Part shown: positions 1,957 to 28,918 of the stretch, one piece after another
Numbering within the stretch: the first letter of the stretch is position 1
Layout: each line of letters begins with the position of its first letter
Source of the DNA: Methanomassiliicoccales archaeon
Lineage (GTDB): Archaea > Thermoplasmatota > Thermoplasmata > Methanomassiliicoccales > UBA472
Direction of reading: 5' to 3'
Assembly (NCBI GenBank): GCA_016926075.1
Contig: JAFGPG010000001.1
Location: 1 to 38,473, forward strand
DNA: 38,473 nucleotides
Notes under the pieces: model-generated
Told to the model about the DNA's origin: nothing
Database searches by the model: none
Seen by the model: only the letters and a program-made list of their open reading frames with translations
Translations under genes and position numbers: made by a program

Positions 1957-2031
1957 CGAGCGGGGAGGGATTCGAACCCCCGACCTGCAGCTTAGGAGGC
2001 TGCTGCCATATCCAGACTAGGCCACCCGCCC
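1957..2031 (-). tRNA. tRNA-Arg (anticodon CCT)
   Basis: Reverse complement folds as cloverleaf: acceptor GGGCGGG/CCCGCTC, anticodon arm GCAGC-CTCCTAA-GCTGC, T-loop TTCGAAT; CCA not encoded; upstream CCAAAACAATTTAAATA BRE/TATA-like. Confidence 0.97.
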
Positions 2032-3827: not shown

Positions 3828-3900
3828 GCCACCATAGCTCAGCTGGTGGAGCGGCTGACTTGTAATCAGCAGGTCGGGAGTTCGAATCTCCCTGGTGGCT
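3828..3900 (+). tRNA. tRNA-Thr (anticodon TGT)
   Basis: Acceptor GCCACCA/TGGTGGC, D arm GCTC/GAGC, anticodon arm GCTGA-CTTGTAA-TCAGC, T arm GGGAG-TTCGAAT-CTCCC; CCA not encoded. Confidence 0.97.
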
Positions 3901-23557: not shown

Positions 23558-23646
23558 GTGCGACAAATAATCTTGTCAGGTATATAGAAGTGAACAGGGT
23601 AGAAGGATGGGAGGAAAAGGTTTGAGGTCCGTGTGGGTACGCGCCC

Positions 23647-24762
23647 TCACTTCATCCTGTGTATGGCGTCGACCACCGCGTCCCCCATCTGCCTGGTGGT
23701 GGCATTGCCGCCCAGGTCCTTGGTGTAGACGCCCTGGTCGAAGGCCCCGCGCACCCCGTCGAAGATGACCTGCCCCAGGTCCCGGCGGCCCAGGTTGTCC
23801 ATCATCATCTTGGCCGCTAGTATGGTGGCCACGGGGTTGATGCGGTTCATGCCCTTGTACTTGGGGGCCGAGCCGTGCACCGGTTCGAACATGGATATGC
23901 CCTGGGGGTTGATGTTCCCGCCCGGGGCCAGACCGAGGCCGCCGGTCACCTCGGCCAGCAGGTCGGTGATGATGTCCCCGAACATGTTCGGCGTTGCCAC
24001 GACCCGGAACCTGTCCGGGTTCTTGACCAGGGCCATGGTCATGGCGTCGACGAACATGAAGCCCAGCTGCTTCCCGGCGCGCCGGCACTTATCGGCCCAT
24101 ACCTCCCGCCATAGGGAGTAGATGTTACTGCAAACGTTGGCCTTGTCCACCACGGTGATGTAGTTCTCGTTGATTAGATCGCAGTATTCGATGACGTGGT
24201 CGGCGAAGCGCTCGATGTTCCTGCGGGACATCATGCCTATCTCGAAGGCGTAGTCGTCCGGCGCATCAGCGTCAACGTCCAGGCGCACCTTCATATCGTA
24301 GAGATGTCGCTTCACCCGAAGGTCCAAGGTGCCCTTGCCCTGGGAGATCCTTCCCCCGACCGCCACGTAATAGTCCTCGGTGTTCTCCCGGAAGACGTCT
24401 ATGTTGAAGTCCACCTCCCTCTTGAGACGACCGAAGGGCTTCCACAGCGGCGCCGGGCGGTGGTTGACGTACTGGTCAAAGGTGAAGCGCAGTGCCAGCA
24501 GGATGCCCTTCTCCAGGATGCCGGGTTTCACGCGGTCGTCCCCGATGGCCCCCAGGAAGATGGTGTCGAACCTCTTCAACTGGCCGATGTCCTCGTCGGT
24601 CAGCAGTTCCCCGGTGCGCAGATAGCGCTCGGAATTGATCTCGAACTCCTGGAAGTCGAACTTGACCGAGTAGTTCTCGGACAGTACGTCCAACACCTTC
24701 ATCGCCTCGGCCACCACCTCCGGGCCTATGCCATCGCCCGGCAGCACCGCTATCTTGTACAT
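23647..24762 (-). CDS. leuB: 3-isopropylmalate dehydrogenase (isocitrate/isopropylmalate dehydrogenase family)
   Basis: [43 protein letters not shown]; operon context. Confidence 0.85.
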
Positions 24763-25244
24763 CTCTTATCCTCCCTGATCTTGGCCATGAGGCCCCCTTT
24801 GTCTATCAGTTCCTGGACGAAGGCCGGGAAGGGTGCGAAGCTCCACTCCCTCCCCTTGGTCTCGTTGATTATCGTCCCCGTGCCGAAGTCCACGGCGAGG
24901 ACGTCGCCGTCCTCCGCCTCTATCTGACACTCCACAGGTAACAGGCCGGTGTTAATGCAGTTCCTATAGAATATCCTTGCGTAGCTCTGGGCGACGACGC
25001 ACGATATGCCCATCTGAAGGAGCGCCCGCGGAGCGTGCTCCCGGCTGGAGCCGCAGCCGAAGTTCCTGCCGGCCACTATGATGTCCCCCTTGCTCACCCT
25101 GGCTGCCATGCCCGGCCTCACCTTCTCGAAGGCGAAGGTCCCCAGACGGTCGTTGTTGTCGCTGGTCAGGCGCTCCGCCGGAATGATCTGATCGGTGTCC
25201 ACATGGTCCCCGAAGGCCCATACCCTTCCCCGTACGTTCCTCAT
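24750..25244 (-). CDS. leuD: 3-isopropylmalate dehydratase small subunit
   Basis: GDHVDTDQIIP, GRNFGCGSSREHA, SYARIFYRN. Confidence 0.9.
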   Translation of the reverse strand: MRNVRGRVWAFGDHVDTDQIIPAERLTSDNNDRLGTFAFEKVRPGMAARVSKGDIIVAGRNFGCGSSREHAPRALLQMGISCVVAQSYARIFYRNCINTGLLPVECQIEAEDGDVLAVDFGTGTIINETKGREWSFAPFPAFVQELIDKGGLMAKIREDKRCTR

Positions 25245-26512
25245 CCCCTCACCTCCAGGTCACGGGGGTCGGTGATCCTGCCGGTGACCGCCGAGGCGGC
25301 CACCACCGCCGGTCCGGCCAGGTACACCTCGGAGTCCCGGTGCCCCATGCGCCCGATGAAGTTGCGGTTGGTGCTGCTGACGCACCTCTCACCGGCGGCC
25401 AGTATGCCCATGTGTCCTCCCAGGCAGGCCCCGCAGGTTGGTCCGGAGATGAACGCTCCGGCGCGGGAGAGCTCGGCCAGCAGCCCTTCTGACAGGGCTT
25501 GCTCGAAGACCTTGGTGGAGGCAGGAACGACGATCATGCGCACCTCCGGGTGTACCTTCCTTCCCCGCAGCACCTCCGTCGCCAGGCGCAGGTCCTCGAT
25601 CCTGCCGTTGGTGCAGGAGCCCAGGTAGGCCTGGTCGATGCTCACGTCCACATCCCTGGCCTTCCTCCCGTTGGATGGCAGATGGGGCAGGGCGACCATG
25701 CTCTCCAGCTGGGAGAGGTCGTACTCCAGGACACGTTCGTAGCTGGCACCCTCGTCGGCATGTACGGGGGTGATGTCGTTCTTGCCCACGGATCTCATGA
25801 AGTCCGCCGTGGCCCCATCGCAGGGGAATATGCCTGCCTTCCCGCCAGCCTCGATGGCCATATTGGAAACGGTCAAGCGGTCAGAGACGGTGAGCTCGGC
25901 CACCCCGCTGCCCGCGAACTCCAGGGCCCTGTAGTTGGCCCCGTCCACACCGATGTCGCTGATGAGCTTGAGCACCAGGTCCTTGCCCCCCACGTACCTC
26001 GAGAGGCGACCCTTGAGCATCACGCGTATGGAGGCTGGCACTTTGAACCATAGGCGGCCGGTGGCGAACACCGCCGCCGCCTCGGAGCTGCCTACCCCGG
26101 TGGAGAAGGCGTTGATCCCGCCGTAGGTGCAGGTGTGGGAATCGGCGCCCACCACCAGGGCACCGGGGTAGGCGAAGCCCTCCTCCAGCATGACCTGGTG
26201 GCATACGCCTCCCCTGCCCACCTCGAAGTAGTTGACTATGCCCCAGCGTTTGGCGAACTCCCTCATCTCCTTGGCCTGCTGGGCGGAGGCCACGTCCTTG
26301 TTAGGGACGAAATGGTCGGGGATGAGCACGATGCGCTCCCGTACCGGCTCGCATCCCAGTGCCTCGAACTCCTGGAAGGCCAGAGGGCCGGTCACGTCGT
26401 TGACCATGACATGGTCCACCTCCGCCTCCACGATGTCCCCGGCCCTGGCGTCCTGTCCGGATTTCAGCGATAGAATCTTCTCCGATATGGTCTTGGGATG
26501 GTCTGGCGTCAT
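25241..26512 (-). CDS. leuC: 3-isopropylmalate dehydratase large subunit
   Basis: DHF, GVCHQV, GADSHTCT.G, GSCTNGRIEDL, CGACLG, STNRNF.GRMG. Confidence 0.92.
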   Translation of the reverse strand: MTPDHPKTISEKILSLKSGQDARAGDIVEAEVDHVMVNDVTGPLAFQEFEALGCEPVRERIVLIPDHFVPNKDVASAQQAKEMREFAKRWGIVNYFEVGRGGVCHQVMLEEGFAYPGALVVGADSHTCTYGGINAFSTGVGSSEAAAVFATGRLWFKVPASIRVMLKGRLSRYVGGKDLVLKLISDIGVDGANYRALEFAGSGVAELTVSDRLTVSNMAIEAGGKAGIFPCDGATADFMRSVGKNDITPVHADEGASYERVLEYDLSQLESMVALPHLPSNGRKARDVDVSIDQAYLGSCTNGRIEDLRLATEVLRGRKVHPEVRMIVVPASTKVFEQALSEGLLAELSRAGAFISGPTCGACLGGHMGILAAGERCVSSTNRNFIGRMGHRDSEVYLAGPAVVAASAVTGRITDPRDLEVRG

Positions 26513-26523
26513 GTACTACCTTC

Positions 26524-28128
26524 CTAGATCTTGTGTTTGGACAGCAGGCGGTCGATGGCCTCCATGGCCGCGTCCACGCTGGTGAGCACGATGTCCGTGC
26601 CGATGCCTTTGCCCACCGACATGACCTTCTGGTCACCGTTCATCCTCAGCTTGACGGTCACCTCGCACAGGGCATCGCTCCCCCCGGTGATGGCGTTGAG
26701 ACGGTATTCCACCAGGGTGATGTTCTCGCTGACCGCGGAGCGTATGGCGTTGAGGGCGGCGTCCACCGGCCCTATTCCCACGTTCGAGGAGCGGGCCAGC
26801 TTCCCGTCCACGTCCACCACCACCGTGGAGGTGGGGGTGATGTTCATGCCGGTGAAGACGGTGAACTCCTTCAGCTCCACGTGGCGCCTCCGTTTCTCCA
26901 CCTGTCCGGCGATGTGCGAGGCCAGGGCCACCAGCTCGGCGTCGTCCACCTCCTTCCCGCTCTCCGCCAGCCGTTTCACCTTCTCTACCACGTCCTCAAG
27001 CTGATGCTCCGGTAGGGTGATGTCATACTCACTCAGCTTCTCCTTGACCGAGTGAGCCCCGGTGTGCTTTCCCATGACGATGTTGCGCTGCATGCCCACC
27101 AGCTCGGGGCTGAAGGCCTCGTAGGTCGAGGGGTCCCTCAGTACCCCGTGCACGTGTATGCCGGACTCGTGGGCGAAGGCGTTGTTGCCCACGATGGCCT
27201 TGTTCTCGGGCACCGGGATGCTTGTCAGACGGGCCACGGTCTTGGAGGTCGTTCCCAGCTTGCGGGTGTCCACGTTCGTGCGCACGTCCAGGAAGGCCAG
27301 TAGCCCCATGACCACCTCCTCAAGGGCGGCATTCCCTGCCCTTTCGCCCAGACCGTTCATGCACACGTGCACCTGTCGCGCCCCCTTGCGAACCGCGGAG
27401 AGGGAGTTGGCGGTGGCCATCCCGAAATCGTCATGGCAATGTATGGACAGAGGGACCTTGGTGACCTGCATGACCTCGGAGACCAGATACTCCATGGCCG
27501 CCGGGGACATGGTGCCCACCGTGTCAGGGAGGTTGATCTTGTGCGCTCCGGCCTCCTGCACAGCCATGTGCATCTCCTTGAGGAAGTCCAGTTCGGTGCG
27601 GGTGCCGTCCTCGCAGGAGAACTCCACGGTGACACCGCGGGAACGGGCGTACTCCACGGCATCCACCGCCTTGGCCTTGACCTCCTCCCTGGTCATCTTG
27701 AGCTTGTGCCTCATGTGCCCCTCGGAGGTGGCGATGAAGGTGTGCACATAGTCCACGCCGTTGTCCACCGCGGAGTCGATGTCCTGCCTCGAGCAGCGGG
27801 CCAGTCCGCACACCTTGGCCTTCAGCCCCAGGGAGCTGATCTTGCGTATGGCCTCCTGCTCGCCTTGTGAGGTGCGGGGGAACCCCGCCTCTATGATGTC
27901 GACCCCCAGCTCGTCCAGCAGCTGGGCTATGCGGACCTTGTCGTCCATGGACAGGGCCACACCAGGGGTCTGCTCGCCGTCCCTCAGCGTCGTGTCGAAG
28001 ATCTCCACCGAGGAGGGGGTGGACAAGTCCCGGGCACAGCTATTGAAATGACTGGTGAATATGCTGTTTCCCTGTTGCCCGCCACGGGCTCTATAGTCCT
28101 GACTGCTCGACGATCGAAGTTCGGTCAC
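26524..28128 (-). CDS. leuA: 2-isopropylmalate synthase / (R)-citramalate synthase family enzyme with C-terminal regulatory domain
   Basis: DTTLRDGEQTPG, PDTVG, HCHDDFGMATAN, GERAGNAALEE, AFAHESGIH, G.GPVDA; GTG 28128 is best spaced from GAGGTG SD (track start 28137); LeuA versus CimA not resolvable by eye. Confidence 0.85.
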   Translation of the reverse strand: MTELRSSSSQDYRARGGQQGNSIFTSHFNSCARDLSTPSSVEIFDTTLRDGEQTPGVALSMDDKVRIAQLLDELGVDIIEAGFPRTSQGEQEAIRKISSLGLKAKVCGLARCSRQDIDSAVDNGVDYVHTFIATSEGHMRHKLKMTREEVKAKAVDAVEYARSRGVTVEFSCEDGTRTELDFLKEMHMAVQEAGAHKINLPDTVGTMSPAAMEYLVSEVMQVTKVPLSIHCHDDFGMATANSLSAVRKGARQVHVCMNGLGERAGNAALEEVVMGLLAFLDVRTNVDTRKLGTTSKTVARLTSIPVPENKAIVGNNAFAHESGIHVHGVLRDPSTYEAFSPELVGMQRNIVMGKHTGAHSVKEKLSEYDITLPEHQLEDVVEKVKRLAESGKEVDDAELVALASHIAGQVEKRRRHVELKEFTVFTGMNITPTSTVVVDVDGKLARSSNVGIGPVDAALNAIRSAVSENITLVEYRLNAITGGSDALCEVTVKLRMNGDQKVMSVGKGIGTDIVLTSVDAAMEAIDRLLSKHKI

Positions 28129-28170
28129 GATAACCACCTCTCACATCCAAGGTCGCGGCGATGAGCTGGT

Positions 28171-28221
28171 TCAAGCTCGCAAAAGACCGTGTCCAACCAC
28201 GATATCTGTGCTCATCGTCAT
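28171..28221 (-). CDS. Putative leu-operon leader peptide (MT)MSTDIVVGHGLLRA
   Basis: 17-codon ORF between TATA and leuA; GAGGT SD at 28222-28226, spaced for second ATG at 28215; Ile-Val-Val and Leu-Leu codons. Confidence 0.55.
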   Translation of the reverse strand: MTMSTDIVVGHGLLRA

Positions 28222-28256
28222 ACCTCGTATGTACGGCTGATGAACAGGAAACGGGG

Positions 28257-28265
28257 TATATAAAA
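28257..28265 (-). promoter_or_regulatory. TATA box of leu operon (TTTTATATA)
   Basis: Consensus archaeal TATA about 130 nt upstream of leuA start, implying a leader of about 110 nt. Confidence 0.7.
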
Positions 28266-28288
28266 TCATTGCTAGGGCCTGACCGACC

Positions 28289-28918
28289 TCAGACCCCCTG
28301 ACGGTCCCCCCATATGAGCTTGTGCAGTTGAGGGAGCACCCTTACCTCCAGCTTCCTGGAGAGGACGAAGGAGACCGCGGGCTCAAGGGAGAGCCCGCCC
28401 AAGGGCGTGAAGATGACCGGGCAGCGGGGGGGATGTGCCCTCAGGACCTGCTCGGCCCTCTCCAAATCCTCCATGTCGGCGACCACGAACTTGAGCTGGT
28501 CCTTCGGTCCGAGCAGTTCCAGGTTCCTGAGCAGCATGCGACCCTCCTCCCCGGAGGAAGGGCACTTGTAATCCATGCTGATCAGGAGCTCGGGATGATC
28601 GGGCAAAACGTCCAGGGGCAGGGAGCCGTTGGTCTCCAGCGTCACGTGGCGTCCATCCTCCAGCAGTGCGGACAGGAGGTGGACCGAATCGGGCTGGCAC
28701 AGAGGCTCGCCTCCCGTGAGGCAGACATGCCGCACCGCCATGGAGCGTACCAGGTCCAGCACCTTGGCCACCGACATCTCCTCGCCTCCCTCCCGGGCCT
28801 GTCTGGTGTCGCACCAGCGACAGTCCAGGTTGCATCCGGACAGACGCACGAACGCCGTGGGCAGCCCCATGGTCCGACCCTCTCCTTGGATGGAGAGGAA
28901 GGCCTCGTGCACGAGCAT
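28289..28918 (-). CDS. queE: 7-carboxy-7-deazaguanine synthase (radical SAM)
   Basis: SIQGEG, RLSGCNLDCRWCDT, LTGGEPL, ETNG, PQLHK. Confidence 0.93.
   Translation of the reverse strand: MLVHEAFLSIQGEGRTMGLPTAFVRLSGCNLDCRWCDTRQAREGGEEMSVAKVLDLVRSMAVRHVCLTGGEPLCQPDSVHLLSALLEDGRHVTLETNGSLPLDVLPDHPELLISMDYKCPSSGEEGRMLLRNLELLGPKDQLKFVVADMEDLERAEQVLRAHPPRCPVIFTPLGGLSLEPAVSFVLSRKLEVRVLPQLHKLIWGDRQGV

Follow-up and report, generated by a model that had tools for sequence, protein, structure and literature searches.

Whether archaea use leader-peptide attenuation to control their amino acid genes is the question raised by a short leader between queE and leuA in a Methanomassiliicoccales archaeon (GenBank assembly GCA_016926075.1, contig JAFGPG010000001.1, positions 1 to 38,473; this whole stretch of 38,473 nucleotides [nt] is referred to below as the window). 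In bacteria, this mechanism is textbook knowledge and requires transcription to be coupled to translation; archaea also couple the two processes, with a eukaryote-like polymerase and a different mode of termination. An original prediction, drawn from the window alone, had proposed that the leader contains an upstream open reading frame (uORF) whose Leu, Ile, and Val codons sense tRNA charging and govern access to the Shine-Dalgarno (SD) sequence of leuA. By comparing the locus with its relatives, we find that the leader of the leuA mRNA, ∼105 nt long and transcribed from the minus strand, carries a uORF that is conserved together with its Leu codons and is enclosed by two nested helices, P1 and P2. 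On balance, we consider that this leader is probably a ribosome-mediated sensor of charged Leu-tRNA. Its features in the window are as follows.

28269-28274, minus strand: TAGCAA motif, conserved across families of the order, 2 to 3 nt ahead of the TATA box
28257..28265, minus strand: TATA box TTTTATATA; an A/T box TTAWATA in relatives, read by eye
28232..28234, minus strand: predicted transcription start, coinciding with the first base of P1, ∼23 to 25 nt past the TATA box
28222..28233, minus strand: 5' arm of P1 (UACA..CGAGGU), from minimum free energy (MFE) folds and pair counts; contains the uORF SD
28222-28226, minus strand: uORF SD GAGGU, from the sequence, part of the P1 5' arm
28210..28217, minus strand: 5' arm of P2, CGAUGAGC, over the uORF start codon (RNAalifold and pair counts)
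28171..28215, minus strand: uORF MSTDIVVGHGLLRA and its stop codon TGA (28173-28171)
28178..28185, minus strand: CUUUUGCG, uORF codons 11 to 13 (Leu-Leu-Arg), from invariant alignment columns and codon tables
28181-28184, minus strand: U4 tract, within the invariant TTTTG
28157..28166, minus strand: 3' arm of P2, GCUCAUCG(CC), the conserved motif CUCAUYGCU (alignment, RNAalifold, and pair counts)
28142..28153, minus strand: 3' arm of P1 (ACCUUG..UGUG), anti-SD-like, ending 1 to 2 nt before the leuA SD
28134-28140, minus strand: leuA SD GAGGUGG, from the sequence; the leuA GTG start is at 28126-28128

A direct check of the sequence placed every element listed in the original prediction at its minus-strand coordinates, and the TATA box would imply a short leader before the leu operon, as had been claimed. 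The predicted transcription start is based on the TATA-to-start distance usual for archaea. In relatives, TTAWATA is preceded by (T)AGCAA at the same distance from the leader (read by eye), a motif that could be a B recognition element or a transcription factor site. The sequence of the window by itself shows no feature beyond chance: its 108-nt leader folds at -32.8 kcal/mol (z = -1.07), 35 of 200 shuffles fold at least as well, and a frame of 14 codons is easily open by chance. We accept the element as real because the comparison with relatives reveals conservation and compensatory changes across five families.

The case for translation of the uORF comes from 71 aligned leaders, to which the main counts refer, and from 28 nonredundant leaders used for the codon tables. 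The frame is open in 71/71 leaders. When stops are counted from the start to the codon that follows UUG, the nonredundant set has them in 0/28 leaders in frame 0 and in 10/28 in frame +2, frame +1 being uninformative for openness because AUGA always gives a stop there. The uORF spans 14 codons in the window and 14 to 21 in relatives; all of these length differences are in frame, an out-of-frame change being present in none of the 71 leaders. The distance from the ATG or GTG start to an invariant codon pair, xUU-UUG, is 10 codons in 66 of the 71 leaders, 11 in 3, and 16 in 2, and two extra copies from family f6 have the 11-codon spacing (read by eye). A GAGG-like SD lies 6 to 9 nt upstream of the uORF start in most leaders. 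In L135 and L136, both from f6, the aligned AUG is lost through a small deletion and the frame is open from a GTG six codons upstream. As for the start in the window, the frame reads ATG ACG ATG, then AGC ACA GAT, ATC GTG GTT, GGA CAC GGT, CTT TTG, CGA GCT, and TGA, with in-frame ATGs at 28221 and 28215. The original prediction had considered both; since the ATG at 28221 is missing from L008, L012, and L016 (3/16 same-genus leaders), the conserved start is the ATG at 28215, from which the uORF counts its 14 codons.

Codons 10 to 13 of the uORF have the consensus Leu-(Leu/Ile)-Leu-Arg around xUU-UUG. In the 28 nonredundant leaders, the position before xUU is Leu in 19 (TTG 15, CTG 3, and TTA 1), the xUU codon encodes Leu, Ile, or Phe in 18, 9, and 1, the next position is TTG in all 28, and the following one is Arg in 23 (CGC 11, CGT 9, CGG 2, and CGA 1). 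The synonymous variation of the flanking Leu and Arg codons points to selection on the amino acids, and TTTTG itself is invariant at the nucleotide level in 71/71 leaders. With the two invariant codons excluded, 21% of the uORF residues are Leu versus 8.9% in six neighboring proteins, and its share in the other two frames is 4.6% and 12%. UUG accounts for 61 of the 130 Leu codons of the nonredundant uORFs; genome-wide, UUG represents ∼10% and CUU ∼14% of Leu codons, as counted in a crude open reading frame set that certainly includes some false frames. The nine N-terminal residues of the uORF are not conserved. The claim of a translated leader peptide with Leu codons before an archaeal leu operon is therefore upheld by these comparative sequence patterns. 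Of the proposed sensing of Leu, Ile, and Val, only the first part finds such backing: the Leu codons are conserved across five families, and the Ile-Val-Val run is restricted to the genus, where most leaders read IIIV and the window reads DIVV. Of note, aragorn identified 22 tRNAs in the whole 79%-complete assembly, with the Leu anticodons UAA, CAG, and GAG; tRNA-Leu with anticodon CAA, the cognate of UUG, was not found by aragorn in this assembly, which may reflect incompleteness.

The same small frame was present upstream of leuA in 30/30 related loci that we fetched. A covariance model, R1, built from 30 leaders (104 positions and 17 pairs), matches 75 of the 151 genomes of the order, once per genome, and is distributed by family as follows: f1, 42/46; f2, 1/1; f3, 4/4; f4, 0/1; f5, 9/10; f6, 16/24; and f7, 2/64. 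Seventy-three of the 75 matches, two weak ones in f6 among them, are true copies directly upstream of leuA, and the LeuA motif D[TS]T[LM]R is encoded within 99 codons downstream in 71/71 aligned leaders. The two f7 matches and three secondary R1 matches do not lie beside leuA and were rejected as copies. In the class outside the order, ∼133 sampled genomes gave 2 marginal R1 matches, neither of them in a locus with a leuA match. Because the 73 copies all precede leuA and none occurs elsewhere in the class sample, the element is leuA specific and, among the genomes searched, confined to five families of the order. A LeuA orthologue is present in 41/41 related genomes. Those designated G001 to G040 contain 2 to 7 LeuA-family matches each, at ∼45%, 39%, and 33% identity, the paralogues presumably being homocitrate or citramalate synthase-type enzymes, and among all these LeuA-family genes R1 matches only the leuA orthologue.

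Helix P2 joins the start codon region of the uORF to CUCAUYGC(U), which follows the uORF; in the window, CGATGAGC (28217-28210) is perfectly complementary to GCTCATCG (28166-28159). Helix P1 pairs 28233-28222, including the uORF SD, with 28153-28142, which adjoins the leuA SD. P1 and P2 are nested and both enclose the uORF. RNAalifold recovers P2 from a plain MAFFT alignment, in which its covarying pair is GC in 18 leaders, AU in 7, and GU in 2; in the model alignment, the same pair is AU in 26, GC in 25, and GU in 7. In this 72-row model alignment, 75.8% of the P1/P2 cells are paired versus 64.9% in shuffles, and the covariation score is 0.324 versus 0.166 in shuffles, with 0/500 shuffles reaching 0.324 and slid-partner controls scoring at most 0.154. 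Changes on both sides of a pair affect 9/10 pairs of P1 and 3/7 pairs of P2; in L005 and L016, for instance, GGGGU is paired with ACCCU in P1. Furthermore, cognate P1 arms pair with -16.2 kcal/mol on average versus -10.9 for arms taken from different groups, and single-sequence MFE folds of 130 nt contain P1 and P2 in ∼27/30 cases (by eye). The probability of P2 exceeds 0.9 in 36 to 44 of the 71 leaders, depending on the downstream sequence included; in the window it is 0.5 for the leader cut at the leuA start and 0.97 to 0.98 with more sequence. The AUG:CAU part of P2 never covaries, AUG or GUG being kept, as is expected if AUG must stay a start codon.

The original prediction had given the segment after the uORF three mutually exclusive partners. 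Its helix A, over the uORF start, is the covarying helix P2, as established by RNAalifold and pair counts. Its helix B (GAGCU/AGCUC) is specific to the window and is not kept in same-genus leaders (by eye), and helix C, with the leuA SD, is taken up below. The alignment of leuA upstream regions from relatives, which had been proposed as a check, shows the uORF, the Leu codons, and helix A to be conserved, the Ile/Val run to be limited to the genus, helix B not to be kept, and helix C to be without covariation; it also brought out P1 over the uORF SD, the invariant spacing, and the nucleotide invariance of UUUUG, which had not been foreseen. A column-wise scan of 42 nonredundant rows returned only P2 and trivial matches of the U tract to purines, and a conserved apical hairpin or a further covarying helix was rejected on this basis. 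Bistability as a general design was likewise discarded, the probability of P2 varying widely among relatives. In two lineages the leader is longer and includes an additional conserved hairpin adjoining the leuA SD, GUCCGYGUCGGAC in one and GGCGCG-UUUU-CGCGCC in the other, the latter with A-rich and U-rich flanks and terminator-like. The leaders concerned are L024, L028, L105, L119, L120, L128, L130, and L132 (∼30 to 40 nt before the leuA start) and L025, L106, L107, and L114.

Distances are conserved beyond the uORF start. The U that opens UUG is separated from the C of CAU in the P2 3' arm by a spacing of 18 nt in 21 leaders and 19 nt in 50, which covers 71/71. The uORF stop falls at one of three positions relative to CAU, -10/-9 (32 leaders), -6 (20), or +5/+8 (19), and in leaders of the +5/+8 class the P2 3' arm is itself part of the frame, encoding Ser-Leu-Leu. 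Between these landmarks, the length of the segments is conserved and their sequence is not, and the scan of 42 nonredundant rows found no conserved pairing within them. Such constancy of linear distance, in the absence of a constant fold, points to a tracking machine, ribosome or polymerase, rather than to a ligand pocket. The leading edge of a ribosome extends ∼12 to 15 nt past the A or P site, as in bacterial toeprints. By this measure, a ribosome stalled on CUU-UUG would not quite reach the P2 3' arm, ending a few bases before it, and one that had advanced to the stop, in whichever of the three positions, would cover that arm. The polymerase might, in addition, use the 10-codon spacing as a loading pause. 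Downstream of the P2 3' arm and up to the leuA start, no conserved terminator made of a hairpin and a U tract was found, the longest T run in this interval being ≤3 in 53/71 leaders and 2 in the window; the original prediction was right on this point, and the leuA SD follows P1 directly.

How would a ribosome on the uORF act on leuA? A kinetic, translational toggle of the anti-SD-like arms, with a stated ON/OFF sign, is the answer that we prefer, and we put it forward tentatively. Once the RNA is complete, P1/P2 would shut the ribosome-binding site of the uORF, so that the uORF would be read mainly by ribosomes loading during transcription, which suits a one-time decision. The position of this first ribosome would then decide between folding back of the 3' arms and their pairing with the leuA SD. 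When charged Leu-tRNA is scarce, the ribosome would stall on CUU-UUG, short of the P2 3' arm; the 3' arms would fold back into P1/P2, and the leuA site would emerge free (ON). When charged Leu-tRNA is plentiful, the ribosome would reach the stop and, during transcription of the leuA SD, mask the P2 3' arm, and the anti-SD-like 3' arms would pair with the emerging SD (OFF). Folds of the leader up to the leuA start are consistent with this scheme: once the 5' arms are blocked, the leuA ribosome-binding site takes 5.9 instead of 2.6 kcal/mol to open, the cost going up by >1 kcal/mol in 58/71 leaders and down by >1 in 6/71, with a median rise of 3.9. In the window, the P1/P2 fold (-32.0 kcal/mol) and the fold sequestering the leuA SD (-32.8 kcal/mol) are isoenergetic, with a pair probability of 0.5.

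Several observations weigh against this account. The control of SD access claimed by the original prediction appears in folds ending at the leuA start and vanishes with coding sequence: with 15 or 60 nt of leuA included, the toggle effect is gone (median change, +0.35), and mean opening costs are ∼12 kcal/mol in all states. A simple SD accessibility switch was rejected because, whatever the ribosome state, the leuA SD and start are unpaired with a probability of ∼0.35. Nor is the leuA ribosome-binding site sequestered by a conserved hairpin, local folds having a mean z of -0.28 against dinucleotide shuffles, with 2/28 leaders below -1.5. Helix C, the pairing with the leuA SD, can form, and it shows no covariation; together with an ACGAU/AUCGU helix, it has 70.2% of its cells paired versus 69.6% in shuffles and a covariation score of 0.137 versus 0.144, with 365/500 shuffles scoring as high. 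As to P1/P2 itself, the pair counts come from a 72-row alignment fitted to the model, with one spurious antisense row, and therefore lean towards structure. AUG:CAU is paired in only 38/71 MFE folds under a strict test with the leader cut at the leuA start, and the probability of P2 is <0.1 in ∼16/71 leaders. The toggle also requires a helix to close around a stalled ribosome, and the sign could be the opposite if the 5' arms were kept open by another ribosome, waiting in line exactly 10 codons upstream. Finally, codon sensing alone leaves the invariance of UUUU, without a synonymous change in 71 leaders, unexplained, and both the mechanism and the transcription start are read from sequence and computed folds.

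This invariance is the starting point of a different output for the same uORF sensor, namely, RNA cleavage or transcription termination at the U4 tract by aCPSF1/FttA or another U-specific factor. A stalled ribosome would hide U4; unstalled passage would let P1/P2 close, block reloading, and display U4 in the loop, turning leuA OFF. Such a scheme would need no SD switch to arrive at the right physiological sign, and it would account for a TTTTG that is invariant in 71/71 leaders while the neighboring Leu and Arg codons vary synonymously. U4 is, moreover, the only T4 run in the leader of the window, and another T4 tract follows the leuB stop at a distance of ∼28 nt. In Methanococcus maripaludis, aCPSF1 uses its KH domains to bind U tracts, the unit of the terminator signal is a U4 tract, and terminators with a single U4 have a median efficiency of 43%; the same study gives two U4 tracts as the minimum for efficient aCPSF1 binding in vitro (PMC8716108), and the leader has one. 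Selection against internal U4, looked for as a sign of termination in this organism, was rejected, since TTTT is not depleted in the coding regions of the genome (observed/synonymous-shuffle expectation, 1.08), and T4 downstream of stop codons (99/855) is no commoner than A4 (85). Termination at U4 would also leave the fixed 10-codon spacing unexplained on its own, and we consider this output unlikely. Equally speculative is a combination of both ideas, an archaeal ribosome-read amino acid gauge of a design not known from bacteria, with a one-shot leader frame, a closing helix that shuts the ribosome-binding site of this frame upon completion of the RNA, and Leu codons dual-coded as a U4 signal for pausing or for a termination factor. 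If this were true, stalling on CUU-UUG would let the ribosome report Leu-tRNA charging and, at the same time, shield or release the U4 signal on which the fate of the leuA transcript depends; the spacing of exactly 10 codons, close to the footprint of one ribosome or to one polymerase-to-ribosome distance, would be a ruler coupling polymerase, first ribosome, and fold.

Other explanations dispense with the codon-reading ribosome. The leader could be a structured RNA with a protein or a small molecule as its ligand, as in a riboswitch or an autoregulatory site, the frame being accessory or incidental. This would fit the invariant unpaired UUUUGC, whose distance from the covarying closing helix is fixed, and for the actinobacterial LEU element a protein-binding role was favored by the authors who described it (PMC1262725). 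We find it improbable here, given that the Leu enrichment is frame specific, the insertions and deletions are in frame, the Leu and Arg codons vary synonymously, the AUG or GUG and its SD are kept, the region between helix and motif keeps its length without secondary structure, which fits a tracking machine better, and no Rfam family matches. A constitutive leader, in which the hairpin stabilizes the 5' end of the mRNA or acts as a standby site or enhancer and the uORF is a by-product or encodes a small hydrophobic peptide, would agree with a P1 that starts at the predicted first base of the transcript and with a leuA SD that adjoins the helix in most lineages; an element found only before leuA, once per genome, enriched in the end product of the pathway, and preferring minor Leu codons makes this explanation highly improbable. 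Arrest of the ribosome by the nascent Leu-Leu-Arg peptide in response to free leucine, with the arrested ribosome occluding the leuA start region, is modeled on TnaC and the fungal arginine attenuator peptide. It could draw on the conservation of Leu-(Leu/Ile)-Leu-Arg, with Arg from four different codons, and on the +5/+8 class, in which the uORF stop is only 15 to 27 nt before the leuA start. We regard it as very improbable, in that the stop lies 2, 3, or 7 to 8 codons past the motif, so that the geometry is not fixed, the nine N-terminal residues vary, and the nucleotide invariance of UUUU would go unexplained.

A hungry-codon frameshift on CUU-UUG was also considered and rejected, the +1 frame ending between -6 and +4 of the leuA start in only 28/71 leaders, mostly those of the same genus and of the L017 group (by eye). 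By hand count, frames +1 and +2 are both open to within 13 nt of the leuA start in 53/71. In the window, the +1 frame from U4 (28184-28126, minus strand) ends overlapping the leuA start, as GTGA, and many relatives have ATGA; it ends at +1 in 17/71 leaders, as do all same-genus rows listed except L014 (-2), a pattern that does not extend across families. A genome-wide scan for other leader frames with amino acid runs gave 73 raw matches, mostly spurious frames of this 61%-GC genome, and was set aside; four candidates that we examined lay inside upstream coding sequence, and the ilv, trp, and his genes were not directly inspected.

The genes that a Leu-tRNA sensor would control were identified from the open reading frame list and NCBIfam matches. 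The source assembly comprises 1.25 Mb in 124 contigs, with 79% completeness and 61% GC. On the minus strand, queC (29588-28920) and queE (28918-28289) are followed by a gap of 160 nt and then by leuA-leuC-leuD-leuB.

23647..28128, minus strand: leuA-leuC-leuD-leuB, the controlled genes
28128-26524, minus strand: leuA, with a GTG start at 28128-28126
26512-25241, minus strand: leuC, isopropylmalate isomerase large subunit
25244-24750, minus strand: leuD, isopropylmalate isomerase small subunit
24762-23647, minus strand: leuB, isopropylmalate dehydrogenase

LeuA is a 2-isopropylmalate synthase (NCBIfam NF002085, 657 bits versus a cutoff of 517). Its residues 1 to 40 (28128-28010, minus strand) form an N-terminal extension of ∼40 residues, the catalytic domain beginning near VEIFDTTLRDGEQ; the extension is also present in relatives, with the start M(T/V)(D/E)(L/R)R kept, and the first leuA codons are conserved at the nucleotide level within the genus (ACCGAACTTCGA). 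Beyond the leuB stop (23647), the T4 run at 23615-23618 on the minus strand (CCTTTTCC) is the sole one in the gap between leuB and the TATA-like box of the following gene (TTCTATATA, ∼23590-23581), and it may be the operon terminator.

Searches for described RNA families returned nothing related to the element. With Rfam at the gathering score, the window gives only two tRNAs (3828-3900, plus strand, and 1957-2031, minus strand), and with Rfam 15 at E values up to 10, positions 27900-28500 give four unrelated weak matches and no described family, Leu_leader included. A haloarchaeal RNA motif, "leuA-Halobacteria," is compared here through the negative Rfam scan. A published archaeal leader-peptide attenuator was not found in the literature covered by full text, supplements and most subscription journals lying outside that scope. 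The element is well defined and spread across the order, and its xUU-UUG pair, 10-codon spacing, and closing helix can be mutated one by one. It offers a handle on leucine regulation in the Methanomassiliicoccales, a group that is difficult to cultivate, and a possible amino acid-responsive part for the engineering of methanogens.

Among known systems, the enterobacterial leuL and other classical attenuators share with this leader a short frame, rich in the end product and biased towards minor codons, that directly precedes the first biosynthetic gene and is embedded in RNA with competing pairings, putative ones in the archaeal leader. The two folds of the window, at -32.0 versus -32.8 kcal/mol, may compete in this sense, the alternative one without covariation, and the spacing fits a ribosome ruler. 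Unlike leuL, the element resides in an archaeon, has neither a terminator made of a hairpin and U residues nor a match in Rfam, and its main conserved helix sequesters the SD and AUG of the leader frame itself instead of forming a 3:4 terminator. In the translational attenuation of erm and cat, the position of a ribosome selects folds that hide or expose a downstream SD, as it would here, and no terminator is needed; there, however, the stall is caused by a drug and the nascent peptide rather than by an uncharged tRNA, and the SD-hiding hairpin is well defined, whereas here it is without covariation support. The leader also resembles the actinobacterial LEU element, which lies upstream of leuA, contains Leu codons in a uORF, and folds compactly on a base stem beside the leuA SD; an obvious terminator is likewise missing, and the mechanism of the LEU element is unsettled as well. 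Its base stem pairs the run of Leu codons with the leuA SD, and a pseudoknot was proposed (Seliverstov et al. 2005, PMC1262725). In the archaeal leader, by contrast, the base stem joins the uORF SD and AUG to the segment after the uORF, and the Leu codons are apical; UUUU offers the GAGG of the leuA SD only trivial U-purine pairing, which is not a base stem of the LEU type, and the sequences and taxa are unrelated. The principle is bacterial and well known; the archaeal host and the terminator-free design built on a closing helix are new.

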